This document shows positions 34,659 to 47,995 of a DNA stretch of 64,000 nt, in pieces. The stretch's first letter is position 1; each line of letters starts with the position of its first letter. The position numbers and the translations under genes were made by a program. The notes beneath the pieces were generated by a model that saw nothing but the letters and a program-made list of their open reading frames with translations, made no database searches and was not told the DNA's origin. Source of the DNA: Acidobacteriota bacterium (GTDB lineage: Bacteria > Acidobacteriota > CAIWXX01); the NCBI GenBank assembly GCA_040755995.1, contig JBFMAF010000036.1:96001-160000 (forward strand). Reading direction: 5' to 3'.

Positions 34659-36944
34659 CTACTTGATCTCGAAGCGATAGTGGTTGCTCTCCTTGCCGTC
34701 CACGATCACGCGCACCTCGCAGATACCCTTGCGGCATCGTTTGGGTATCTCGACCTTGATCGACGTGAGGCGCGCGCGTGTGATCTTGGCGAGCCTGGTC
34801 CCGAAGTACACCTTGATCTTCGATGCGTCGGCAGAGAAGTTGTTGCCGCGGATGGTAGCAGAGCTTCCGGGCTTGCTCGTCTTCGACTTGATGCGCGTTA
34901 TCGTCGGACAGCCGGGACAACCGGCTGTGACTGTGATCGTGGCTGTGGAGCTATCGGCTGTGCCGCAGGCGTTGGTGACGCGCGTCCAGAAGTACGCCGT
35001 CGCAGCCAGTGCGACAGTCGTGTACGAGCTGGAGTCCGTACCGACCGGCGTCGACGTGTCTCCGGCGAGGCCCTGGTACCACTGGTAGTGGAGAGGCGCA
35101 GTGCCTGAGGCCGTTACCGACAGGGACGCCGTCTGGCCACTCGATATCGTCTGGCTCTGCGGATCCTCTATTACGAGGGGCGCCGTACATCCGCCGCCGC
35201 CGACAGTAACGGTCGCGGTGTTAGAGTTCGCAGCGCCGCAGACATTCGTAACTCGCACCCAGAAATTCGTCGTCGCGCTGAGGGCCGCCGTCGTGTAGCT
35301 GGCCGAGTCTGTGCCGACCGGCGTGGATGTGTCACCAGCCGCGCCCTGGTACCACTGGTAGTGCAGCGGCGCGGTGCCCGAGGCGGCAACGCTGAGGGTG
35401 ACAGTCCCCCCGCTCGCGACAGTCTGGCTCTGCGGCTGCGTGGAGATCGAGGGGCATAGGCACGTCTGATCCACGAAATTGACACCCCAGAGGTTGCCAA
35501 CGGTCGTGCTATAGCCAACCGAGGTACCGACGGTCCTCGACTGATTGAGGAATATGCAGCCAGCCTTGGAGGCGCTCACGGTATATGTCCCCGCTGGGAC
35601 ATGGACCAGTGCGTAGATCCCTCTTGCGTCGCTCGTGTCTGAGTATGCACCTGCGGTCACGAGGGCGCCGCTGATCGGGTTCCCGCACCCGTCGAGGACA
35701 CGGCCGCTGAGGATTTCGCCGCCTCCGCTCACGAAAACGTTGTACACGCACTTGTAGACTTTGTTGAAGGATGGAGACGAGGTGATGTACGGAAGGTCGT
35801 ACCAGGTATCAGACGAGCCCGACCAGCCCATGTTGAGGTGGTGGTAAATCTTGCCCGAGCTGTACCCGTAGCCGTCGCACACGATCGCATGACCACCAGC
35901 CGCACCTGTGATTCCCAGGTTTACCGGCAACCCTGCATCGAGATTCGGGTTGACCATCTCGTACAACCCGTGCCCGACGAGTTCCTGGGCGCTGTTGTAA
36001 CCCGCGATTGCATTGCTGTACCCGAACCGCGAAGTCAAGGCGCCGGCAATGGCCAGAGTGTCCGCGGCTGAGCCACCGCTCTGGTACCACATGTTAACCG
36101 ATGCGCCCGTGTCGTGCGTCAGGTACCCGATGGCCCTCCTCTGGTTGTCGGGAGTCGAACCTGGCGGGTCGTACGGCATGTTGGCCCAGTCGTAGGCGCC
36201 GCCGGACCCGTCTCCGCCCATCGTGTTCTCGCTCTGCGGAGTCTGAGACGGGCCGACGTAGATGGTGTATGAGTGCACCCCGATTCCAGAAGTCGGGTGC
36301 TGATGGAATCGCATCAACTGCGACATGGCCGTGGCGACACACCCGCAAACCCAATTGTTCGGCGTGAAGTAGTTGTAGCAGAGCCCGCCACCGTCGTTGC
36401 CCTGGTTCCACCTGCTCTGCACGAACGCGTCCACCCGCGGATCGCTAGGCGATGGCACCGAGCCTAGATCCATTCCCGGACGCGCGTCCTGATTCAAGTA
36501 GCGCCGCCAGGTCTCCCTCGCATCAGATACCTCAGTCGAGTGCGCCGCCTCGGGTCCGCCCGTCTGCATCTCGCGCGCCCATCGAAGCCGGTCCGGCATG
36601 TCCGCCATCAGGAAGTCATACAGCGGATTCTGCGGATTCGGATCGATGAAGCCGTTGGCGGAGAAAGCAATTATCGGGTGGATGTAGTCGTCTGGGGCGA
36701 CCACCACGAACCCTGCCGGATCAAGCCTGACTGCATAATAGATGATTTCTCCGCCAGGGCCCTTCTCCGAATCCACGCCCTTGATGACAGCGCTCATCCT
36801 GGCGTTCAGCGGCCGCGGCGCCAGCCGCAACCACCCGGCTACGGCAGACATCGCCTGTTCCGCGCTAACCGGATCAGCCAGAACTACCGTCGCGGCACCC
36901 GCCAAGACGGTAAGAACCACAACAAGGCTAACCAGCTTCCTCAT
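34659..36944 (-). CDS. C10 (streptopain-like) cysteine protease with I69 propeptide, two Ig domains and IPT domain
   Basis: SRWNQ, GCVATAMSQLM, GHAIVCDGY, HLNMGWSG; two near-identical Ig repeats; basic C-terminal IPT/TIG. Confidence 0.92.
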   Translation of the reverse strand: MRKLVSLVVVLTVLAGAATVVLADPVSAEQAMSAVAGWLRLAPRPLNARMSAVIKGVDSEKGPGGEIIYYAVRLDPAGFVVVAPDDYIHPIIAFSANGFIDPNPQNPLYDFLMADMPDRLRWAREMQTGGPEAAHSTEVSDARETWRRYLNQDARPGMDLGSVPSPSDPRVDAFVQSRWNQGNDGGGLCYNYFTPNNWVCGCVATAMSQLMRFHQHPTSGIGVHSYTIYVGPSQTPQSENTMGGDGSGGAYDWANMPYDPPGSTPDNQRRAIGYLTHDTGASVNMWYQSGGSAADTLAIAGALTSRFGYSNAIAGYNSAQELVGHGLYEMVNPNLDAGLPVNLGITGAAGGHAIVCDGYGYSSGKIYHHLNMGWSGSSDTWYDLPYITSSPSFNKVYKCVYNVFVSGGGEILSGRVLDGCGNPISGALVTAGAYSDTSDARGIYALVHVPAGTYTVSASKAGCIFLNQSRTVGTSVGYSTTVGNLWGVNFVDQTCLCPSISTQPQSQTVASGGTVTLSVAASGTAPLHYQWYQGAAGDTSTPVGTDSASYTTAALSATTNFWVRVTNVCGAANSNTATVTVGGGGCTAPLVIEDPQSQTISSGQTASLSVTASGTAPLHYQWYQGLAGDTSTPVGTDSSSYTTVALAATAYFWTRVTNACGTADSSTATITVTAGCPGCPTITRIKSKTSKPGSSATIRGNNFSADASKIKVYFGTRLAKITRARLTSIKVEIPKRCRKGICEVRVIVDGKESNHYRFEIK

Positions 36945-37071
36945 GTACCCCCCTCCACAAGTCGAGCTGCCATGCGTGTTCCCCCTGCCGGACGGATGTG
37001 CGATCTGACGATCGCCTCCGGCTCCACGGCAGCGCAATGCGCCTCGCCGCTCCCACAGGGTTCACGCCTGG

Positions 37072-37174: not shown

Positions 37175-37693
37175 CTACTGAAGCCCGTCGCCCGCGGCCA
37201 CGGCCTGCTCGATCGTCGACACCAGCAGAAACAGCGATCGAGCTCTGTCGGCGAGTGGCACGAATCCATGTCGGCTGTAGAAGCGGGCTGCCGTGTCATC
37301 CTTGGCTTCGGCCAGCACGGCGACAATGCCGATGTCGGTGCGGGACAGACGGGAGACTCGGAGGAGGGCATCCCTGAGGAGCGCCGATCCGAGGCCACGT
37401 CCCGATGCCGACTTGTCGACGGCGAGCCTGCCCAGGCAGGCAACTGGCACAGGATATCTTGGGCACTTTCGCCGAAGATCCGGAGGAATCGATTCGAATG
37501 CGATGCTCGCCACGCTGAGCGAGCAGAAGCCATATACACGTTCCGCATCCGACGCGACGAAAGTGCGCGAGTAGTTCTTGTCCTGCTGCTGCCTCGCGTA
37601 GAGTCTGATGAACTCGTCTAGGGCTGAATTCCCGCAGTCAAAGGAGCTCCGAATGTGGTCCCTGTTGAGGGGCTCGATCCGCCAGCCTGTCAT
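37175..37693 (-). CDS. GNAT toxin (AtaT/TacT-like)
   Basis: FDCGNSALD.F, PVACLGRLAVD..GRGLG, FYSRHGF. Confidence 0.9.
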   Translation of the reverse strand: MTGWRIEPLNRDHIRSSFDCGNSALDEFIRLYARQQQDKNYSRTFVASDAERVYGFCSLSVASIAFESIPPDLRRKCPRYPVPVACLGRLAVDKSASGRGLGSALLRDALLRVSRLSRTDIGIVAVLAEAKDDTAARFYSRHGFVPLADRARSLFLLVSTIEQAVAAGDGLQ

Positions 37694-37974
37694 CGCGCCC
37701 GCACGCCCCGCAACAGCCTGCGCAACGCCTTGTTCGGTTCCGGCGGGTTCTCGATCGCCCTCAGGAAGATATCGCGATCGCGATCGCTGAGCACGATGGC
37801 CTCATGTTCGGAAAGAACGCGCCTGGCCGCGTCGCGAGCGTGTGCCAGCATGAACGCTGACAACGTGAGACCTGAGATGTCGGCTGCCCGCTCGATTTCT
37901 CCGCGGACCTGTGGGCTCAACCTGAGATCGATGCGAGCACTCCTCTGCGAGCGACGTGACGCTGACTTCGCCAT
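37690..37974 (-). CDS. DUF1778 RHH antitoxin
   Basis: RIDLRL..IERAA..SAFM, IENPPEPNKAL; 4-nt overlap with toxin. Confidence 0.9.
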   Translation of the reverse strand: MAKSASRRSQRSARIDLRLSPQVRGEIERAADISGLTLSAFMLAHARDAARRVLSEHEAIVLSDRDRDIFLRAIENPPEPNKALRRLLRGVRAR

Positions 37975-38098
37975 CGCTGACCTCCTTTCCGGCAGTCTAG
38001 CACAATGTACGGAAAATTGCCACCATTTGCCGCGATCGAGATCGAGCGATCGGCTCGCCCGCGCGTGGCGTTGGCGACGGGTTCCGTGTGTTCCCATG

Positions 38099-39262
38099 TC
38101 AGTGGGATGGGTTCGAAGGTGGCGCGAGTATCTGTCCAAGCGACCGGATTGCGTCCTCGACAGGCCATACCTCGATCTCGTCCCAGTACTCGCGGTGTGA
38201 CCCACCGTAGAACAAGTAGCAGCGGGCGGACGGATAGTCCTCCTTGAAGAGGCGCAGCCCCGCCGCATCACGTCGCGAGAGCCTGGCACCCCGCTTGACT
38301 TCAATCGCGACAAGACCGCGCCGGCCGTACGCGACTATATCCACCTCTGCGCCGGTGCTTGTGCGCCAGTACGAAATCGAGTACTCCGACGCCGAATACT
38401 CGTTCATCGCGAGCAGTTCCTGCATCACGAGTGACTCTAGAGCGGCTCCTTCTATCTCCTCGGGCGTGTCCAGCGGCCCACTCGGCCTCAGCTGCCGGTA
38501 GACACCCACATCAAAGAAGTAGAACTTCGGGTGCGCAGCCATCCGCCGCTTGGCACGCCTGGTAAAGACCGGCACGCGGAAACCGAGCAGGAGGTCTTCG
38601 AGCAGGTCGAAGTGATACCCGACCGTCCTGCGATCGATCCCGGCCTCTCGCGCAATCTCAGCCGTGTTCAGCGTTGAGGCCTGGGAGAAGCTCGCCGTCT
38701 CGAGGAACCTGACGAAGGAAGCGATGTTCCTGGTCAGCCCTTCCTGCAGCACCTCCTCCCGGAGATACGTCTTGACATAGGACGCCAGGTAGTCCCGTGG
38801 CGCAGGCTCGGAGAAGATCGCAGGCATGTGCCCATAGAGCAAAGACTTTCTTAGATCGAAGTCATCTCCCAGCTCACCCGCCACCAATGGGAACATGCGA
38901 TACGTGTGCGCCCTGCCGGCCAGAAGATTCACACCGCCCCGGCGAAGTCTGCGGGCGCTCGATCCCGTCAGGACGAAACGCCATCCTCGAGCCTCGATCA
39001 TCCGGTGTACCTCGTTCAGAATCTCCGGGGCGCGCTGGACCTCATCGACCACCACCCATCCGCGATGGTTGCGCGGGACGAAGTCGGCGAGGCGCCCGGG
39101 GTGCGCGAGGAGCGACTGGTAGACATCGGCATCCAGCAGGTCGATGAACACGGCGTCACCACAGCGCTGTTTCAGCCATGTCGTCTTGCCCGTTCCACGA
39201 GGGCCGAACAGGAAAAAGCTGTGGCCCGCGGCCAGGGGTTTCGAAAGCATTCTGGCATACAT
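38099..39262 (-). CDS. AAA_14 ATPase with DUF4143
   Basis: GPRGTGKT, VDEVQR, TGSSAR, PKFYFFDVG, EVD..IEVK. Confidence 0.92.
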   Translation of the reverse strand: MYARMLSKPLAAGHSFFLFGPRGTGKTTWLKQRCGDAVFIDLLDADVYQSLLAHPGRLADFVPRNHRGWVVVDEVQRAPEILNEVHRMIEARGWRFVLTGSSARRLRRGGVNLLAGRAHTYRMFPLVAGELGDDFDLRKSLLYGHMPAIFSEPAPRDYLASYVKTYLREEVLQEGLTRNIASFVRFLETASFSQASTLNTAEIAREAGIDRRTVGYHFDLLEDLLLGFRVPVFTRRAKRRMAAHPKFYFFDVGVYRQLRPSGPLDTPEEIEGAALESLVMQELLAMNEYSASEYSISYWRTSTGAEVDIVAYGRRGLVAIEVKRGARLSRRDAAGLRLFKEDYPSARCYLFYGGSHREYWDEIEVWPVEDAIRSLGQILAPPSNPSH

Positions 39263-39412: not shown

Positions 39413-39775
39413 TCAGGTCACATACTGCCGCATGCGTTCGGCCTCTTTGCGCAGCGAGTCGGCTTCGCGTCGATGCGTCTCGGCCTCCACTTTCCAGCGT
39501 TCAACACTGTCCTGGTCAGATGGCGACTGTGTGGTTGCGTAGCGCTCGGCAGAACGCACTGCTGCTGCATCGGCTTCTCCGGCGAGCACCTCGGCTTCCT
39601 TGGCCTTCTTCTCCGCCTCGTCCGCAAGCTGGAGATAGCGCTGCGCCTCGGCTTCGTTCGGCTCCCTACCGCCCTCTCGCGCGAACGCCCGCTCCAGCAC
39701 TCCTCCGACCTCCTCCTGCGTCCGCGTGTCAGCAGGCCGAAAGCGCCCGGAATCGTCCCTATCTGGATCGTCCAT
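39413..39775 (-). CDS. Small acidic coiled-coil protein
   Basis: E/A/R-rich helical ORF, last gene of operon. Confidence 0.7.
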   Translation of the reverse strand: MDDPDRDDSGRFRPADTRTQEEVGGVLERAFAREGGREPNEAEAQRYLQLADEAEKKAKEAEVLAGEADAAAVRSAERYATTQSPSDQDSVERWKVEAETHRREADSLRKEAERMRQYVT

Positions 39776-39831
39776 TGTTCATCTTCCCAGGTTGGAGCCA
39801 CCGAGTGCTGCGGGTAACGGCCTCACCGGCG

Positions 39832-40551
39832 CTAGTCCTTCTTGACATCGGCGGCCTCATCGGGCTTCTCGTAGCCCTTCTTCTCGGCTACCTCTTCGAC
39901 GCCCCACGTCCGGATCTCGCCGGCCTCTCGTCGCTTTTCCCAGGCCTCGTCACCCTTCTTGTCAGCCTCTTGACGCCACGCGTCCGCGTCTTTCTGCCGA
40001 GTCTCGGCCGTCTCCTTCAGACTATCCGCGTCCCACTTGTCCTTGGCGATTTCAGACCGCGTCCCAGCCGCCTCAGCCTGCAAGTCAGCGCGCTCGGCCC
40101 TGTGCCCCGCCTCCTCCTTGCGGTACTCTGATGCCTCCGCCTGGCGGTCCGCCGCCTGGGCCGCATAGTAATCCTTGTCTTCTTTGGACTCTGCACGCTC
40201 CGCCTGCCACTTTGCGTCGGCAGCTGAGTCGTCCTTGCGCTTGGCGTACCACTCATCCCAATCCGCGTCCTGCTTCTTGTGCCCCGCCTTGTACTCATCC
40301 CAGTCCGCCTTCTCCTTGGCGGCCCGGTCATCCACGGTGTCGGCCCACTTGCCCACCGCCTCCTCCGAATCCTTGCGGTCCTTCGGCGGCTCCTCCTTCG
40401 GCTTGTCCCAATCCAGGGCCTTTTCGACCTCCTTCTTCGTCTCCGGCGTGGCCTCGGTCTTGGCTTCCGTCTTCGCCTCGCTGGTACTCGTCGATTCGGC
40501 TTTCGCTTCCGTCGACGACGTGGTGCTGCTTTCCGACGTCTCTTCGGCCAT
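39832..40551 (-). CDS. Highly charged low-complexity helical protein
   Basis: GAGG RBS; E/K/D/A-rich with periodic Trp. Confidence 0.8.
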   Translation of the reverse strand: MAEETSESSTTSSTEAKAESTSTSEAKTEAKTEATPETKKEVEKALDWDKPKEEPPKDRKDSEEAVGKWADTVDDRAAKEKADWDEYKAGHKKQDADWDEWYAKRKDDSAADAKWQAERAESKEDKDYYAAQAADRQAEASEYRKEEAGHRAERADLQAEAAGTRSEIAKDKWDADSLKETAETRQKDADAWRQEADKKGDEAWEKRREAGEIRTWGVEEVAEKKGYEKPDEAADVKKD

Positions 40552-40586
40552 GTGTCACCTCTCTGAGAAGTCCTCCGTGCTATGTC

Positions 40587-40775
40587 CTATGTCTTTCGTG
40601 CTGCGTCACGCTCGGGCTCGGGAAATGCCCTCGCAAGCGCCTGCTCGGTCTCCGACCGCGTCTCGTTCGGCGCCGCCCTGAAGCGAGCTTCATCGACCTC
40701 GCCGATCTTCTCGACGGCCTTGTCCGATTCCCGCACCGCCTCCTGTGTGATGTCCATGCTCCCCGGATTCGGCAT
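40587..40775 (-). CDS. 62-aa small protein
   Basis: GGAGGAGG RBS right after ATPase stop; shares motif with 39413-39775. Confidence 0.7.
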   Translation of the reverse strand: MPNPGSMDITQEAVRESDKAVEKIGEVDEARFRAAPNETRSETEQALARAFPEPERDAARKT

Positions 40776-40790
40776 CTGTCCTCCTCCCGC

Positions 40791-43700
40791 CTAGGCGGTG
40801 GTCGCGCGGCCCGGTCCGTCTGCCACGCCCTGGAATCCTTGCAGCACGTGCGGCCGCTGCGCCCCCGAGTTGACCAGGTAGCAGAACGCCAGCGGGTGAA
40901 TGTGCTGTGGCGAAACCTCGAACGGTGCCACATCCTGCGCCATCCGCTGCACGACCTCCACCAGGCGGCCGAAGTTGTTCACGAATCCAGGTCGCTCCGC
41001 GGCCTCCTTCAGTCGATCGGCGAGAAGCTGCGCCTTCGGCGCAAGATCCCGTTGTACCACGAACCCGTACCAGCACTGCCGCCGGCAGAACCGGCATCCA
41101 GGCTCGATGCGTCTGGGCTGCACCGCCACCTGCCCTCGGAGTTCCTCCAGGAACGCGACGATCTGGTCGGCCGTTTGTGGTGTTGTCGGGCCCTCGTTCA
41201 TGAGCCCTGAAACGGCTCCGGAGAACAGCTCCTCCAATCGGAGATACGATCGGAAGCTGCCGAGGCCTCCGCGATAGTACCCGTGCCATTCCTTCAACGC
41301 GAGATGCGCCGTCTGGACGATATTGCAGAACAGGACGCCGGGCGCGGGCTCGACGCCGCCGAGGCGCTTGCGCAGAGCATTGAGAAGCGTCGCGCGCGTC
41401 CGCGCCCACTCCGCTTTCGCCGCCGGCGGCGAGCCCGCCATCAGGCTCGCGATGAAGTTATGGCATGCCTCGTAGCCGGCGGCATCGGGGGCGTTTGCAT
41501 CGGACAGGTACATGCAGGGGGAATCGCAGGGGGCGCACCCGGGCCACCGTCGGTATATATCACGCACTGTGTCTTGAAACGCAGTCATACGCTTTCGCAG
41601 TCCCTCGCGCCCGATGTCCCGCATGAACTGTTCGCGCAGGTTGTCCTTGACGCCGTACACCTGCAGCAAGATCGGCTTGTCCAGGAATTCGTTGTGGACC
41701 ACGGCCTGGCCCACACGCAACCGCACCACGTGCTCCTTCTGTTCCTGCGTCAGGTTCATGGCATTGCCCACCGACTGCCGGTCGTCTTCCGCGACGATAC
41801 GGTGCAGGATCTTGAGATTGGTGTTCTTCAGAACGTCCGGAGTCAGCTTGGCCGGCACCTGATCCACGATGATGAACCCCTCGCCGTACTCACGGATCTC
41901 GGCCAGAATATCGGAAAACATCTCCACGGCCTTCCCGCGCGGGTTGGCGGACTCGGCACTGAGCGCGGGCGGGATGTTCTTGAGGAGCCGGTGGGACTCC
42001 TCGATCAGCGTGATGTGCTGCAGGCCGCCGCCGTAATGCCGGGCAGTCTCGCAATACTCGTAGAGGTTTATCAGGAGCAGCGCCATGAGGAAGGCCTTCT
42101 CTGCATCATCCCCCACGTTCTTGAGCTCCATCACGGACGGCTTGCCGAAGAGCAGCTCCGCAGGGTATGAGTTGCGCGTGTTCAACATCGATCCCTTGCC
42201 CGCGATCAGGAGACTCTTGATGCGTGCCTTCAAAGCCGCCGAGATATCCATGCTCAGCTGCTGTGCGTATTTCTTCCGTTCCACGACGACGTCGATCTGG
42301 CGGTACAGGTCCTCGATCGTCGGCAGATACGGCACGTAGTCGTCCTTCGATGCGTCGATGAAGCGATTCTCCGAGCGGGAGAGGTCCCATCCCCGGTCTG
42401 TGTAGACGTCGAGGACCGCTTCCTCGAGGATGTACGGCATAGAGGCGTACATCGGGAAGCTGGCATTGAATACCGCCTTGAGCAGATCGATGTGGGTGAG
42501 CAGAGGGTAGCCGCGGGCGAAATGGAACGGGTTGAGGCGAAACGGGGACGTGGTCTCGTCCCCGAGTGTGAACACCTGCAGCTCGCGTCCCATCACAGGG
42601 TCCGCCAGCAAGACCCTGTACTCGGTCTTGGCCGGCTCGATCACCAGAAACGGCACCTGCTCGCGTTCGTATGCCACCCGCAACAACGCCAGACATGTAT
42701 TGGTCTTGCCCGCCCCCGTAATCCCGGTGATGAAAGTGTGCTTCGTCAGGCTTTTCGGTGGAACGTAGAAACGATCCGGCAGGACCTCGCCCCTGTAGAT
42801 CACCTGACCCAGCGCAAACCCTTCGGCAGCCGGTGGGTTGAGACCGAAGTCGGCGATTGGCGTCAACCGAATCCCAGGAACCTCCTCGCGCGGCATCCCC
42901 ATCACCAGCGACAGCTCGACGGTATTCAACGGAGTCGCGAGCTTGTGATAGATGGGTCCCAGCGGATGAGGAGCCTGTTCCGGGAACTGGATCTCGGGAT
43001 TGCGGAATTGCATGAGCGAGTCGCGGAGCGCCTCGTCATGCGCGCTCATATCGATCGACCGCAACGGTTCAAAATATGTCTCCTCACCCGACAGCACAGC
43101 CCGGACGACACCCTGTCCGCGATGCAGCGTGTTCTCGTTCTCAGCAAGAAGGAAGGTGCCGACATTCCACAGGCCGGAATTCTTGCCGTCCTGCAGGCGC
43201 TCCACGTACCGGTCCAGCAGCGACTCGCAGAACGCCGCAGTCTTGTTGAGAATCTCACGGCTGATGCCGCGCGTGCGCTGCTCGGACGTCGTGTCGGTGC
43301 GACCCATCGAGAACCCGGCACCCCCGACCACGGCGCTCAGGATCGGGCTGGCCGCTCCGAGCAGCGGACCGAACCCGAGCATGCCTCCGAGCAGCGTGGC
43401 CCCGCCGACGATGAGGCCGCCGCCGAGCGACCCGCCTTTCTGGTCGGCCCGCGAGGTCGTCTGTCCGATGGAGTCGCTCATGGTGCCGCGGACGTAAGCA
43501 TGAATCTCGGAGCTCAGCTCGCGGCACCTCTGGATCACCTCGTCGACCGTCGGCTCGCGAATCGGTTCGGCGATCACCACCAGGCAGTACTGCTCGCCGC
43601 GCAGGCTGTTGGCCAGCCGTTCGAGCCCCTGGACAAACACATCCTTCGACCCCTCTTTCAGCGACGGAATCCCGGTGATCGCGCCGATCCGCCGCAGGCT

Positions 43701-44174
43701 GGCGATGGGACGCAGCAGTTCCAGCGAGACATCGCGCGGCCCGAGCGAGCTCAGGCGAATGCCTGGGTAATTGCCGTGCAGAGCGCTGTCCAGGACTTCG
43801 ATCAGGTCGGCCGTGTGCTCGTGGCTGGCGGCATCCGACTTGTACAGGCCCATGTAGAGCTGCGTGCGATGCCCCTCGCTCCCGACCACGAACGCCAGCG
43901 AGTGAGAGCCGTCGCGGAACGAGCTAATCACGTTCTGCATGTTCAGGGCGTGAAGGCTCCGGCTCACGTCCGGCGAATGCGCAACTTCTGTGATCCGAAG
44001 GAACCGCAGGTTTGCCATCAGATTCGCGTCGGGCTTGACCTGTACCAGCCCGAAGTCGGGGACGCCGGGGAGGTAGCGCCGCTCGAGCGCCGTCAACAGG
44101 CTCTGACTTAGAGCGCTGTCGGACAGAGCCATCATCTGGCCATGGGGTCCTGCTACCTGCAAAGGCATATCCAC
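40791..44174 (-). CDS. HerA/FtsK/VirB4-like (DUF87) ATPase
   Basis: Walker A GITGAGKT, LVIEPAK.EY, Walker B LIEESHR, EIREYG, VDQ.P; Gly-rich hydrophobic segment; Cys-cluster C-terminus. Confidence 0.9.
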   Translation of the reverse strand: MDMPLQVAGPHGQMMALSDSALSQSLLTALERRYLPGVPDFGLVQVKPDANLMANLRFLRITEVAHSPDVSRSLHALNMQNVISSFRDGSHSLAFVVGSEGHRTQLYMGLYKSDAASHEHTADLIEVLDSALHGNYPGIRLSSLGPRDVSLELLRPIASLRRIGAITGIPSLKEGSKDVFVQGLERLANSLRGEQYCLVVIAEPIREPTVDEVIQRCRELSSEIHAYVRGTMSDSIGQTTSRADQKGGSLGGGLIVGGATLLGGMLGFGPLLGAASPILSAVVGGAGFSMGRTDTTSEQRTRGISREILNKTAAFCESLLDRYVERLQDGKNSGLWNVGTFLLAENENTLHRGQGVVRAVLSGEETYFEPLRSIDMSAHDEALRDSLMQFRNPEIQFPEQAPHPLGPIYHKLATPLNTVELSLVMGMPREEVPGIRLTPIADFGLNPPAAEGFALGQVIYRGEVLPDRFYVPPKSLTKHTFITGITGAGKTNTCLALLRVAYEREQVPFLVIEPAKTEYRVLLADPVMGRELQVFTLGDETTSPFRLNPFHFARGYPLLTHIDLLKAVFNASFPMYASMPYILEEAVLDVYTDRGWDLSRSENRFIDASKDDYVPYLPTIEDLYRQIDVVVERKKYAQQLSMDISAALKARIKSLLIAGKGSMLNTRNSYPAELLFGKPSVMELKNVGDDAEKAFLMALLLINLYEYCETARHYGGGLQHITLIEESHRLLKNIPPALSAESANPRGKAVEMFSDILAEIREYGEGFIIVDQVPAKLTPDVLKNTNLKILHRIVAEDDRQSVGNAMNLTQEQKEHVVRLRVGQAVVHNEFLDKPILLQVYGVKDNLREQFMRDIGREGLRKRMTAFQDTVRDIYRRWPGCAPCDSPCMYLSDANAPDAAGYEACHNFIASLMAGSPPAAKAEWARTRATLLNALRKRLGGVEPAPGVLFCNIVQTAHLALKEWHGYYRGGLGSFRSYLRLEELFSGAVSGLMNEGPTTPQTADQIVAFLEELRGQVAVQPRRIEPGCRFCRRQCWYGFVVQRDLAPKAQLLADRLKEAAERPGFVNNFGRLVEVVQRMAQDVAPFEVSPQHIHPLAFCYLVNSGAQRPHVLQGFQGVADGPGRATTA

Positions 44175-44175
44175 C

Positions 44176-46056
44176 TCACTTCTTGAGCTGGGTCACGGCA
44201 CAGATCGCCAGCCCCCTGGCGATCGTCTCCTCCGGGTTCGGCGCAAGAATCGGCGGGCGGTCGAGAGCCGCGCGCACGGCGTCGCCCGCGAAGTACCACC
44301 GCGCACTCCCGCCCGCCAGGATGACATGATCCAGGTGCACGGGCCTGAAGCCGATCCTTCCCGGGGCCTCGACGAGCGCATCCTGCAGCTGCTTGCGTGC
44401 CTCGGTCAGGAGCTGGTCCATCTCGACACGCGTCATTGAGATGCGCGTCGGTGGATCGCCCGCCGGAATGACGCAGTACTGGACATGCTCATTCCGTCCC
44501 TCGGCAAACGACCTCGACGCCTCTTCCTTGAAATCGCGCGCCAGCAGGGCGAGCGCGCGATGGTCCTCGTCCGAGAGCTCCAACTGCAGATGCTGGAGCA
44601 ACCAGTTCTCGATCATCATGTCAAACCACATGCCGCCCAGAGGAAGCTCCGTGTGATCGATCACGACCGGAGGCGACCCTTCGCCGCGTATCTCCACGAA
44701 CGAGATGCCCAGACCCTGGCTGCCCCAATCGAGCACCATCGCGTGCTCGGTGTCTCGGGGCGCCTTCTGGAGATGGAACGCCGCCGCGGCGAGAGGCTCG
44801 GGCACGAGCATTGCCAGCGGGAATCCGGACTGCTCAACCACCTCTGCCAACGCTTGCATGCGTTCCTCGGGCCAATCGGGCGGCACACCAAGAGCCGTCG
44901 CCGCGCCCTCGTGAGAATCAACCGAGCCCGGCCCGAGCACCTCGACCAGACGATAGCACAGCATCGTGAGAAAGCTGCGTGCCGCCTGAGCCGCCTCGCC
45001 CGAATCAGCTCCAATCTCGCCTGCGAATCCCAGGCTGACCTCATCCGGCGCCTGCGGCCACAGGCCCAGTGCGGCCTGGCCGAACAGGTCGGCGGAGCCC
45101 CCGGCGGACAGCTTCACGGCTGACGGGACCATCGTGCGCGCATCGAAGCGCACGAAGTCGGGCGGCGCGAGCAGGCGCCGGCCGTCGGCGCGGGCGTAAG
45201 CCAGGTAGGAATAGCCGCGACCCAGCGCGAGCCCAGTGATCGTGCGCGCGCCTCGCCGAGCCGGACGCTCACGATGCACACGGGCCAGACTCGAGAGGTT
45301 CCTCTGGGGTTCGGGTTTCGGCGGCCGCGCCTGAGCCGGCGTCGGGGACGGCGCCGGCGCTTGCACCTGCACAACGGCGCCGGCTCCAACCAGAGCCGCC
45401 CGAAGCCGCTCCGCGACCTCAAACGACAACTCCACGGCCAGCAGCACCGGCGCGCTCGCGACGAATGCGCTCGCGTCAGAGGGATTGAGGCCGAGGACCT
45501 GCCGGAGCGCGACGATGACACGCGGCCGATATGGGCCCGCAGAGACGAGCGTTATGTTGTATCCGGTCTGAGCGGCCGGCACCGGCGCCGCTGGAGACGC
45601 TGCGATCGCCGGTGGAGCTTGAGGCTGCACCACAGGCGCCGACCTTGGTGCAGCTGGTTGTCCCGGCGTGTGTTGCGGTGGAACCGAGGCGGCCGGTTGT
45701 TGTCCAGACGTCGGCGCCACAGGTACGGCAGCAAGCGCGGCGGGAGCTCGGACCGGTGGTGACTGCCGCTGGACCGCGGGCGCGGCCACAACGGGAGCCG
45801 CTGGAGGTTGCGCTGCAGCTGTTGCCGGGGCGCGATCAGTAGACATAGTCGGAGCCGCGGTCGCTGCGGCAACGGTTGGGGTTGCAGTCGGCGCGGGCGA
45901 TTTGAGAGTTGCAGGGGTTGGCGGATCCGGCGGCCCTGCGGGCTCTCCCGCGTCGGCGCGCTCTCCGCATTTCTGGCAGAAGCGCCCTTCAGGTGGCAGT
46001 TTCGAACCACAGCTAGTGCAAAATCTCGACGGCGGATTCTTCGCGTTCTCAGGCAT
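44176..46056 (-). CDS. Zn-ribbon / Pro-rich / L7-L12-CTD-like / Hsp70-NBD fusion protein
   Basis: CTSC..CQKC; L12-CTD-like segment 45361-45561; VPSAV, GVP, EPLAAA, LGG..FD, LAGGS, PEETIARG. Confidence 0.85.
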   Translation of the reverse strand: MPENAKNPPSRFCTSCGSKLPPEGRFCQKCGERADAGEPAGPPDPPTPATLKSPAPTATPTVAAATAAPTMSTDRAPATAAAQPPAAPVVAAPAVQRQSPPVRAPAALAAVPVAPTSGQQPAASVPPQHTPGQPAAPRSAPVVQPQAPPAIAASPAAPVPAAQTGYNITLVSAGPYRPRVIVALRQVLGLNPSDASAFVASAPVLLAVELSFEVAERLRAALVGAGAVVQVQAPAPSPTPAQARPPKPEPQRNLSSLARVHRERPARRGARTITGLALGRGYSYLAYARADGRRLLAPPDFVRFDARTMVPSAVKLSAGGSADLFGQAALGLWPQAPDEVSLGFAGEIGADSGEAAQAARSFLTMLCYRLVEVLGPGSVDSHEGAATALGVPPDWPEERMQALAEVVEQSGFPLAMLVPEPLAAAAFHLQKAPRDTEHAMVLDWGSQGLGISFVEIRGEGSPPVVIDHTELPLGGMWFDMMIENWLLQHLQLELSDEDHRALALLARDFKEEASRSFAEGRNEHVQYCVIPAGDPPTRISMTRVEMDQLLTEARKQLQDALVEAPGRIGFRPVHLDHVILAGGSARWYFAGDAVRAALDRPPILAPNPEETIARGLAICAVTQLKK

Positions 46057-46072
46057 CGGATTCACCCTTGTG

Positions 46073-46100
46073 CAGTTGTCAGTTGCCAGTTGTCGGTTGC
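46073..46100. repeat. Heptamer tandem repeat (CAGTTGY) x4
   Basis: cagttgt cagttgc cagttgt cggttgc. Confidence 0.75.
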
Positions 46101-46202
46101 GGACGATGCTGAGTGCCCCGCCGCGATCGCGAACTGTCTCGGCGCCGTGACGTCGCACCTTGTGTCCCGGGCATCTCTCTTCCCGTGGAGGGGAGCGGCC
46201 CA

Positions 46203-46943
46203 CTACCCTGCGGGGCTGCCGCAGTGGTCGCAGAATCTGGCGTCCGCGTGGAGCTCGTGCCCGCAGGTGAAGCACCTCTTGGATGCCGCGGCCCCGCATG
46301 CGTTGCAGAACTTCGAGCCGGGTTGCAGCGGCTGGCCGCACTGAACGCAGGCCACCGGGCCTGCTGCAACTCCCGCCTGACCTGGCGACCCCATGGTGAC
46401 TGGCGGAGGTGGCCTGACAGGGCCATGTGGTGCGCCAGGTTGCCCCTGAGCGGAGCCGAATGCTTGCGGGCCCTGAAACGGCGCCTGGGACGCGCCGAAG
46501 CTGGGAGCCGTGCTGAATCCGGGGGCGGCGCCGGCGGGCGAGCCGCCGAACGCGGAGTTCGTCCTCACGTACTCCTCGATGAAACGCCATGCTTTGGTCT
46601 GCAACTGCGACTGCTGGTAGGCCCCGACCCCCGCCGTGATCAGCGCAGGGAAGAAGACGATGGCTCCCACGCCGGCCACGACACCCTTGTCAGCCCACTT
46701 CGCTCCTCCCATCTCGACACTCACGTACTCGCCTTCCAGGCCGATCATGGCCGTCAGAGCGGACGACATCCCGGCGATCTTGCGGAGTGTGTCTTCTTTG
46801 CGTGCCTGGACGGTCAAACCGCCGTTCGGCGCCGGCATGATCTGAGTCTGATACCCGTCCCTGGCGAACCATTCCGTGAGCGATTGGGCCAGTGCCTGCA
46901 TGTCAATGTCGGGGCCGTAGAAGTGGCGCTTCTCCATGGGCAT
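46203..46943 (-). CDS. Membrane protein with C-terminal double zinc ribbon
   Basis: GGAGG RBS; hydrophobic GVVAGVGAIVFFPALITAGVG; four CxxC pairs. Confidence 0.85.
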   Translation of the reverse strand: MPMEKRHFYGPDIDMQALAQSLTEWFARDGYQTQIMPAPNGGLTVQARKEDTLRKIAGMSSALTAMIGLEGEYVSVEMGGAKWADKGVVAGVGAIVFFPALITAGVGAYQQSQLQTKAWRFIEEYVRTNSAFGGSPAGAAPGFSTAPSFGASQAPFQGPQAFGSAQGQPGAPHGPVRPPPPVTMGSPGQAGVAAGPVACVQCGQPLQPGSKFCNACGAAASKRCFTCGHELHADARFCDHCGSPAG

Positions 46944-47012
46944 GGTCTAGACCTCCTTCAACCTTCGCTTCTATGTGCAGCGCTACGATCTGTCGGAACC
47001 GTATCTCCGGGC

Positions 47013-47672
47013 TCAGAAGAACACCGAGTCCGAGACCTTCTCTCCGCGATTGACGCGCTCGGCCACCTTGTATCCATCGAACGCGCAGGCCACCGCAAAT
47101 ACCAACCCCAGCAGCATCCACAGCGAGAAGATGCCGGGATTCGTCAACACCATCTGCTCCTGGCCGAACATGTCCATCATCGGAGTGTAGGCACCCCTGA
47201 GAATGACGAACGACGCGATCCACCAGACGGCGAGTTGAATCGCCCCTTTCTTCATCTGTCCGTTATAGAAGGCCTGCGCCCCGAACCCGCCTAGAAAGAA
47301 CCCCAGCGCCGCAGCTACGCCCTGGCTCTTCCGCTTCGAGACCGGCTGCGCCGGGTAGTATCCTGGCGGATAGGCGCCCGGTGCCTGCGCCGGTGGAGGG
47401 CCGTACGGTTGAGGCGCCTGTGGTGGTGCATAGGGCACCCCGACGGGCGGCTGGCTCGGCGGGTACTGCGGAATTGCGGGTGGCGGCGCCTGAGGCGGCT
47501 GGTAGTACTGTCCACCTGGGTAGGCAGAGGTGGGAGGTGGAGCCTCTGACTGCGGCGGGGCCGGAGCGATCGGAGGCTGTGGACTCGGAGCGGCGGCGAC
47601 GGGTGCACCGCAGGACATACAGAAGCGAGCATCATCGGCATTCTTGGTCCCGCACTGACTGCAGAATGGCAT
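47013..47672 (-). CDS. Zn-ribbon + Pro-rich + TM2-domain protein
   Basis: FCSQCG..FCMSCG; KSQGVAAALGFFLGGFGAQAFYNGQMKKG. Confidence 0.88.
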   Translation of the reverse strand: MPFCSQCGTKNADDARFCMSCGAPVAAAPSPQPPIAPAPPQSEAPPPTSAYPGGQYYQPPQAPPPAIPQYPPSQPPVGVPYAPPQAPQPYGPPPAQAPGAYPPGYYPAQPVSKRKSQGVAAALGFFLGGFGAQAFYNGQMKKGAIQLAVWWIASFVILRGAYTPMMDMFGQEQMVLTNPGIFSLWMLLGLVFAVACAFDGYKVAERVNRGEKVSDSVFF

Positions 47673-47995
47673 AGGATCACCTCTTCAGAGTATTGTCGAG
47701 TGGAGTTTCGAAGCAGACCCGCGGGTCCTCACGCCGGCTTGCGGCGCCAGGGCAGGCGATCGACCGGACGCGCTCGCGGCGAGCCTTGCGGGTAGCCGGC
47801 ATAGCGCCCAAGATAGGCGTGCCCGGCGCCGTTGTCAAGCCCGCTGCGCGCAGGAGAACGGAAGAGGCGAGTGGCAGCCTGCCCATCGGCCTTTCATGCA
47901 GCTCGCCTGGCCGTCACGTGCGTTCGACACGGGCCCGCGTCGTTCATCACATTGCACGGCGCGCGAAGGCGGCTCCATCGTATGGTATGGGTGTG

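Follow-up and report, generated by a model that had tools for sequence, protein, structure and literature searches.

A ring ATPase and an Hsp70-like partner ahead of swappable toxins suggest an undescribed route of toxin export or activation in bacteria

We analyzed a 64,000-nucleotide stretch of DNA from an Acidobacteriota bacterium (assembly GCA_040755995.1, contig JBFMAF010000036.1, positions 96,001 to 160,000; hereafter the window, whose own numbering is used throughout), which holds a cassette of seven genes built around a large ring-type ATPase. All seven are encoded on the minus strand (47672 to 39413), separated by 69, 146, 1, 15, 35 and 56 nt. The original prediction on this DNA, made from its letters alone, had described seven co-directional genes with short gaps, among them an Hsp70 fusion 1 nt from the ATPase and a further gene 15 nt on, and this layout is confirmed. 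Gene 1 (47013-47672, 219 aa) joins a zinc ribbon and a Pro-rich linker to a TM2 membrane domain; gene 2 (46203-46943, 246 aa) has an unnamed domain of about 130 aa with a hydrophobic segment, followed by a Pro/Gly linker and a double zinc ribbon; and gene 3 (44176-46056, 626 aa) combines a zinc ribbon, a Pro/Ala linker, an L7/L12 C-terminal-like domain and an Hsp70 nucleotide-binding domain. Gene 4 (40791-44174) encodes the ATPase, of 1127 aa (1125 from the ATG at 44168), with a VirB4/EccE-like N-domain carrying a hairpin insertion, a HerA/VirB4 motor and a Cys-rich helical C-domain. Three small proteins follow, all acidic (net charge -4, -21 and -9), in keeping with the three small charged proteins predicted there: a 62-aa peptide consisting of a leader motif only (gene 5, 40587-40775; motif 40620-40670), a 239-aa helical protein with a low-complexity N-terminal leader (gene 6, 39832-40551; motif 40399-40449), which occupies what we call the cargo slot, and a 120-aa helical protein (gene 7, 39413-39775; motif 39680-39730).

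Pfam cut-offs are passed by the zinc ribbon and TM2 domains of gene 1, the double zinc ribbon of gene 2, the zinc ribbon, L7/L12 C-terminal-like and Hsp70 domains of gene 3, and DUF87 in the ATPase. The predicted run of zinc ribbons in three consecutive genes is borne out, these proteins having 2, 4 and 2 CxxC motifs (Pfam Zn_Ribbon_1/DZR). For gene 3, we discarded an 804-aa open reading frame starting at 46590 in favor of the 626-aa form starting at 46056, because the longer frame runs over the preceding gene and homologues begin at the shorter start. The host genome, 99.84% complete, has one copy each of the genes for the ATPase and the three small proteins. A candidate sigma-70-like promoter (47810-47838, minus strand; TTGACA, 17 nt, TATCTT; 10/12 consensus positions) lies 140 nt 5' of the cassette and is weak, with two such sites found against a shuffle mean of 0.8.

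The motor of the ATPase is intact, as had been foreseen, with Walker A (GITGAGKT, 42702-42725) and Walker B (ITLIEESH) motifs, a Gly-rich hydrophobic segment and C-terminal Cys clusters; across 32 homologues the catalytic G, K, T, E, E and H and Arg 759 (numbering of the 1125-aa form) are invariant. TrwK/VirB4 is the top structural match of the full predicted model (pLDDT 82), with HerA next. The model of the N-domain (pLDDT 85) aligns with that of TrwK/VirB4 at Z 17.7 (rmsd 3.8, 267 residues aligned), the next-best matches being ESX-3 chain 6lar_G (Z 9.3) and ESX-5 chain 7b9f_E (Z 7.3); we infer the former chain to be EccE3 from a 6sgx-G match given in the text of Bell et al. (2024; PMC11090510) available to us. 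All 12 Foldseek matches of the N-domain at E<=0.001 are TrwK/VirB4, and the domain family is large, with 1028 representatives at 50% identity (E<=0.001). The protein is better described as VirB4/EccE-like than by the HerA/FtsK-like label first given to it. Existing models recover it poorly: PADLOC and NCBIfam give just weak HerA-type matches, far under the NCBIfam cut-offs, as are the matches to CedD and HerA models. Its best NCBIfam match is ser_rich_anae_1 (NF033849), and the scores against the HerA-nuclease and NF033849 models are 27.7 of 800 and 96.9 of 650 bits. Although NurA-HerA, Sir2-HerA and NF033849 systems resemble the cassette in their HerA-type motor and Ser/Thr-rich region, neither Sir2 nor NurA adjoins the ATPase in the cassette. 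No PADLOC model covers the accessory genes.

Between two helices of the N-domain lies a hairpin insertion (43248-43490, approximately residues 229-309) with Ser/Thr-rich arms of period 2 and a Gly-rich hydrophobic tip; model confidence is low here, and the base is modeled as two strands. The insertion is 77 aa long in the clade of the window and 45-290 aa elsewhere, or absent; in the longest one found (290 aa, L015:2151-6323), both arms are lengthened by 14-residue repeats. Among 196 distinct insertions of at least 40 aa, arm lengths correlate (rho 0.70, against -0.54 in shuffles), the tip is centered (0.52 +/- 0.08, against a shuffle SD of 0.25) and Ser and Thr make up 35% of the arms, which have a strict period of 2 and 0.5% Pro; the corresponding p-values are overstated, because the 196 rows are related rather than independent. 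We read this geometry, seen in the sequences, as that of a beta-hairpin stem whose tip seeks the membrane, and several such hairpins may be assembled into a barrel.

For comparison we fetched 79 genome loci and 80 metagenome loci (the best 80 of 558 and the best 80 of 481 confirmed stretches) and seven from a viral collection. Clustering at 90% ATPase identity reduces them to 97 loci, of which 40 have a hairpin of at least 45 aa. The core of the family, plasmid loci included, is found in Acidobacteriota, Chloroflexota, Synergistota, Verrucomicrobiota, Lentisphaerota, Nitrospirota, Bacillota, Actinomycetota, Cyanobacteriota and Spirochaetota. Thirty-four hairpin loci fall outside the window clade, and 32 of these have at least 700 nt of downstream sequence. 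A toxin-type or immunity gene stands right after the ATPase in 26 of the 32. Half of these 26 pass Pfam cut-offs (11 with an NS_2, LHH or WHH nuclease and/or SUKH, YezG-like or DUF6985 immunity protein, and two zincins), and 13 are assigned by homology or by a catalytic motif recognized by eye (LHH in L030; HExxH zincins; HNH; PD-(D/E)xK-like). In the other six, an HNH pair lies about 3 kb further on (L167), a C39-like peptidase and its following gene stand upstream of the ATPase (L007, L028), the contig ends (L094), or no toxin-type or immunity gene is seen (L021, L161). Overall, the slot holds toxins of the WHH, LHH, NS_2, HNH, REase-like, zincin and ADP-ribosyltransferase families, usually followed directly by an immunity gene (SUKH, YezG-like, DUF6985). 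According to their Pfam descriptions, SUKH and YezG-like proteins are immunity families of interbacterial toxins. Such proteins are used in secreted-toxin systems.

The toxins also exchange their tips. The ATPases of L019, L023 and L026 are 68%-79% identical and are followed by proteins with related leaders (43% identity over 115 aa between L023 and L026), and yet these end in HNH-like, REase-like and WHH domains; likewise, a common leader precedes NS_2, WHH and REase-like domains in L031, L037 and L018. Conversely, L023 and the distant L018 share a toxin tip at 53%. A conserved N-terminus with swapped C-terminal toxin domains, a mark of a polymorphic toxin system, is therefore found at the level of the family. 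The leaders are unstructured and mostly acidic: the first 60 aa are net negative in all 32 hand-picked cargo genes, versus 34% of 947 long open reading frames from the genome of the window. The general class proposed at the outset, a translocation or conflict machine with downstream cargo, was right, the slot elsewhere holding polymorphic toxins and immunity genes.

Polymorphic toxin systems were defined by Zhang et al. (2012; PMC3482391), with T2SS, T5SS, T6SS, T7SS, PVC, TcdB/TcaC, PrsW and MuF as routes. As far as the accessible text of that study goes, the family shares with them the constant N-terminus, the swapped C-terminal toxin, the adjacent immunity gene, linked trafficking genes and the WHH, LHH and SUKH families, whereas the routes named there lack the present core, Hsp70 and VirB4 having 0 occurrences in that text. 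The window copy differs from them in that its cargo has no toxin domain. A type IV secretion system (T4SS) VirB4 such as TrwK of R388 has the same two-domain fold of N-domain and motor; the ATPase differs by its hairpin and Cys-rich C-domain, and no other T4SS family was found in the host genome. In the portion of a T4SS review at hand (PMC12857230), VirB4 and its relatives form hexamers, and VirB4 is not shown to recruit substrates directly. Type VII secretion systems (T7SS; ESX/T7SSb) are similar in having an FtsK/HerA-superfamily motor beside small helical proteins and toxin-immunity pairs, in addition to the ESX-3 and ESX-5 likeness of the N-domain, but the window ATPase has one Walker A/B set, unlike the multi-domain EccC/EssC, and comes with no WXG100 match, a diderm host and Hsp70 or dynamin partners. 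To judge by its genes, the family works like a polymorphic toxin system and is not a member of the T4SS, T7SS or HerA-nuclease groups.

Relatives of the ATPase occur on 42 plasmid records. Among 10 such loci inspected, three have WHH with immunity, one an ADP-ribosyltransferase with a small gene (on a Streptomyces clavuligerus plasmid, L188, where the ADP-ribosyltransferase-domain protein has a strongly acidic leader) and two a zincin three genes on, while four have no Pfam-called toxin; a toxin-type or immunity gene follows the ATPase directly in 4/10. The plasmid setting, the VirB4 fold, the CedD and HerA matches (far under cut-off as they are) and the listing of conjugation among the options for a similar ATPase in the available text of Bell et al. 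(PMC11090510) could suggest a stand-alone VirB4/HerA-type DNA pump for mobilization or exchange, with the toxin-immunity pair as its maintenance module. We regard this as very improbable: no relaxase, VirD4 or VirB10 is encoded in the cassette, the host genome has no match to the VirD4 or VirB10 families, 23 of the 42 plasmids are typed as non-mobilizable, and non-nuclease cargo (zincin, ADP-ribosyltransferase, C39-like) with conserved protein leaders suits a protein substrate.

The core itself is conserved across phyla, so that the absence of linkage that would have spoken against the original prediction was not observed. A gene for an Hsp70-like protein lies within 8 kb upstream in 29 of the 36 hairpin-bearing loci with enough flank, as found with a profile built from these same loci, several of the hits being confirmed by Pfam. 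Dynamin-like GTPases occur in two of the seven hairpin loci without Hsp70, and also in Lactococcus and Treponema plasmid loci. Hsp70 is absent from all 18 loci with flank of the hairpin-less clade that holds Melainabacteria, and present in some other hairpin-less loci (L111, L112, L115, L150). The description of the window protein as a pseudo-Hsp70 holds for its own clade: compared with the DnaK of the same genome, its phosphate loops are degenerate (GLALGRG, DWGSQGL), whereas the EP and adenosine motifs are retained, and the loops are degenerate in L007 too. It does not extend to most toxin-linked clades, which keep GIDFGT/S and DFGGGT loops. Unlike a DnaK/Hsp70 chaperone, the window protein also stops after the nucleotide-binding domain, without a substrate-binding domain, and in this clade the Hsp70 domain is probably a non-hydrolyzing scaffold.

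Of the two proteins initially thought to be membrane-anchored, gene 1 is supported by its TM2 domain; for gene 2 anchoring is likely only, as its hydrophobic stretch (KD19 maximum 2.27) is embedded in a larger folded domain. A homologue of gene 1 occurs in one close locus, and a TM2 gene directly precedes the ATPase in the distant L167; gene 2 is found in six independent close loci. Zinc-ribbon membrane genes recur next to the ATPase across many clades and are not orthologous. The N-domain of gene 2 (46539-46943) structurally resembles domains (TM about 0.8) that several phyla have joined to zinc ribbons, TIR_2 or FHA, and a fusion search gave a weak match to the Hsp70 protein of L007 (E 0.033). 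Several further arrangements were seen. In L018, L027, L030, L031 and L037 the third gene after the ATPase, behind the toxin-immunity pair, encodes a small membrane protein with a C-terminal zinc ribbon, and L007 has a zinc ribbon and RDD membrane protein. The gene before the ATPase of L188 (5399-7195) has a membrane segment and a Ser/Thr-rich C-terminal stretch of its own. In Melainabacteria (loci in the range L033-L079), a hairpin-less ATPase has a fixed locus in which it is preceded by one or two large, low-complexity membrane proteins with zinc ribbons, one of which has a weak TrwB-like match, and no toxin is recognizable. Two tandem ATPases are present in L036 and L039.

The window and its closest relatives have no toxin in the slot. 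None of the three small proteins has a Pfam domain above cut-off, an enzyme domain or a hydrophobic helix, and in the ESM Atlas the 239-aa protein had no feature match and only structures with TM (by query) below 0.5. The 239-aa and 120-aa proteins nevertheless follow the ATPase in 7/7 independent close loci with flank, and the 62-aa peptide in two; these seven loci helped to build the profiles, and most were first found by tblastn with the window proteins. The 120-aa protein is the best conserved of the three. It also occurs in L007 (Anaerolineae; ATPase 51% identical), between a C39-like peptidase pair and Hsp70. All three proteins share a motif, approximately T/P-x-E-V-x-x-x-L-x-x-A/W-F/D (hhalign E 0.001 and 0.025); in leave-one-family-out tests, the best site fell on the motif in 10 of 11 cases (p 0.003-0.15), and two of the genes contain an independent DNA repeat of 35 nt at 71%. 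In L008 (ATPase about 50% identical), the motif recurs in an 83-aa peptide (p=0.005) and in the zincin toxin (p=0.02). A universal leader motif was considered and rejected, as shuffles score as well as most distant toxins. We also disfavor the 120-aa protein as immunity for the 239-aa one, because L007 has the first without the second (within 780 nt of downstream flank) and both are acidic. As weak evidence, none of 8000 candidates scored joined the 120-aa protein and a toxin in one longer chain. Cargo or adaptors is the most plausible reading of the small proteins.

A quick tree was made with SH-aLRT support alone; it lacks L007, L018, L165 and L179 (4 of 54 rows), and several of its long branches are unreliable. 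Its sister group to the window clade (support 100) is a clade rich in Chloroflexota (support 90 for the pairing), whose cargo includes zincin, HNH, REase-like and NS_2 proteins. With a toxin-bearing sister, the window clade seems to have lost its toxin secondarily. Its members may then be a disarmed or repurposed offshoot, serving in envelope stress or membrane protein remodeling, with small proteins that are not conflict cargo. The window and seven independent close loci without toxin or immunity gene, the degenerate Hsp70 loops here and in L007, the strong drift in composition of the 239-aa protein, and an ATPase that is 74%-79% identical across Acidobacteriota and Anaerolineae (75%-78% and 74%, respectively, in the named relatives) are in line with this. 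We nonetheless think it unlikely, considering that the motor is intact, that the small genes occupy the cargo slot and share their motif with the leader of a sister-clade toxin, and that L007 pairs the 120-aa homologue with its C39-like peptidases. A second toxin-less variant is seen in L185 (5925-12045, Acinetobacter plasmid), where WYL and a hairpin ATPase precede proteins of 78 and 226 aa without toxin domain, similar to the small-helical-gene arrangement in the portion of Bell et al. at hand.

Taken together, the comparisons show a constant core (the ATPase, an Hsp70 nucleotide-binding domain or dynamin-like GTPases, and zinc-ribbon membrane proteins) ahead of a variable slot of leader, toxin and, usually, immunity gene. 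The best reading is a minimal export machine that threads leader-bearing cargo, to which we give a probability of roughly 0.5. The ATPase would form a hexamer at the membrane, attached through the hairpin tips or the zinc-ribbon membrane partners; the Ser/Thr-rich hairpins would build a beta-stranded stem whose hydrophobic tips enter the membrane; and the motor would grip the leader, remove the immunity protein and thread the cargo outward to neighboring cells, with the Hsp70-like or dynamin partner and the zinc-ribbon proteins as scaffold, trigger or membrane remodeler. In the window clade, the toxin would be replaced by three non-enzymatic, leader-bearing proteins. We favor export because of the T4SS- and T7SS-like folds, the gene order, the immunity families, the polymorphism and the hairpin. 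A bolder version is distinctly more tentative: a new minimal secretion system of at least 10 phyla, in which a single VirB4/EccE-like ATPase serves as motor and needle alike, its hairpins zipping into a beta-barrel of tunable length with membrane-inserting helical tips, through which leader-tagged toxins would pass into neighbors. If true, such an ATPase would connect type IV and type VII secretion in a single chain, and Hsp70 and dynamin would be interchangeable partners.

Several observations weigh against export. The host encodes Omp85 and therefore has an outer membrane, but the operon contains no outer-membrane channel, wall hydrolase or multi-pass translocon. Searches of the 99.84% complete host genome gave 0 matches to PF03135, PF03743, PF02534, PF06013 and PF05943 and found neither the VirB10/TrbI and VirD4 families nor WXG100, and no homologues of 23 test toxin and immunity proteins. 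Hairpin length shows, by eye, no obvious link to envelope type. The window cassette lacks a toxin domain and an immunity gene, and its leader motif is weak at the values given above and undetected in most distant toxins. The toxins are small, without a recognizable target-entry domain. Hairpin-less relatives carry toxin-like cargo too, four of them (L111, L112, L115, L150) with net-positive leaders, so that neither the hairpin nor leader acidity is required.

Also counted against export are two features of the neighborhood. WYL regulators, which have a role in defense, precede the module in L014 and L021 (Pfam), in L037, in L016 (a homologue of the L014 gene) and in 3/10 plasmid loci; and a defense gene (RM, CRISPR, BREX or PDC) lies near 7 of 20 scanned loci (135 of 195 neighbors scanned, without a control). 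Both would fit a device that acts inside the cell, in which the ATPase, tethered to the membrane, would detect phage or a damaged envelope by way of its Hsp70, dynamin or zinc-ribbon partners and pull the toxin by its leader off the immunity protein, killing or arresting the infected cell while the cargo stays inside; the small proteins of the window would then be non-enzymatic effectors or regulators. The lack of an encoded translocon in a diderm host and the patchy distribution (6 of 401 genomes of the phylum, the window genome included) agree with such a role. So does the setting of the window, where the cassette adjoins an AAA_14 + DUF4143 ATPase gene (38099-39262, minus strand) with a strong match to the candidate defense model PDC-S01 of PADLOC (197.8 bits) and a TacA-like antitoxin and GNAT acetyltransferase toxin pair (37175-37989, minus strand). 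The first report of this ATPase type points the same way. In the accessible text of Bell et al. (PMC11090510), Type III-A CoCoNuT defense operons include an ATPase named "EccE3-HerA", which has an insertion of beta-strands that varies and a neighbor that is small and helical; its role is left open. This is very likely the same ATPase type, as judged by description and fold: both share the EccE3/VirB4-like N-domain, the variable beta-strand insertion and the VirB4-like C-terminal ATPase. EccE3-HerA is, however, an add-on to McrBC-type defense operons, and no McrBC or vWA gene was found in the cassette and the adjacent genes scanned. Defense inside the cell is the main rival of export and in our view clearly less likely. 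The order of toxin and immunity gene, the immunity families and the conserved leader with a swapped tip form the pattern of toxins acting between cells (PMC3482391, in the text available), 13 of the 20 loci have no defense neighbor among the genes scanned, and a purely cytoplasmic trigger does not readily account for a symmetric hairpin that can reach 290 aa.

Some neighboring genes deserve separate mention. In the window, the AAA_14 + DUF4143 gene has a promoter-like site of its own (39296-39269), and a gene at 34659-36947 (minus strand) encodes a Peptidase C10 with I69 inhibitor prodomain and Ig/TIG domains. A protein of 101-111 aa of no family stands on either side of Peptidase_Mx-type zincins (L008:3083-3403; L098:11331-11666; L148:5250-5573; L179:11161-11466) and is a candidate new immunity family, with L098 and L148 assigned by tblastn and L179 and L180 by eye. 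A second family of about 100 aa is found behind another type of zincin (L010, L011, L013, L165, L166). In L010 (6582-8183), a gene with bDLD1 and EAD7 (Death-like and effector-associated domains) follows the zincin-immunity pair, and in L108, L116 and L163 a zincin-like cargo is followed by a conserved gene of about 158 aa of no family and then a long gene, with an AAA ATPase further on in L163.

The original prediction of an undescribed system is supported and can be sharpened, with one qualification: the architecture of the ATPase had been noted in passing, as mentioned above, whereas its link to toxins was not found in the literature. In the accessible text of PMC11090510, no Hsp70 or dynamin partner, toxin-immunity slot or leader is named for the ATPase, and the portions at hand of Kaur et al. 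2020 (PMC7159879) and 2021 (PMC8195603), PMC12857230, the lactococcal PMC11381338 and PMC13335696 do not describe the module. In the literature searched, with subscription journals and bioRxiv supplements outside its scope, we found nothing connecting the ATPase with Hsp70 or dynamin and toxin-immunity pairs, and as far as searched the trafficking core of this polymorphic toxin system is undescribed.

Small toxin-immunity pairs for which we know of no delivery route number in the thousands. Across ten phyla, the present family supplies a recognizable compact core for one such class, and it gives a concrete role to an ATPase type that had been noted once, its function left open, as well as to Hsp70-like and dynamin genes that were orphans. 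A ring ATPase and an Hsp70-like partner ahead of swappable toxins suggest an undescribed route of toxin export or activation in bacteria. Since versions of the module are present on plasmids of harmless bacteria in culture (Lactococcus cremoris, Streptomyces clavuligerus), experiments can decide directly between export and anti-phage suicide; either outcome would be a new mechanism.

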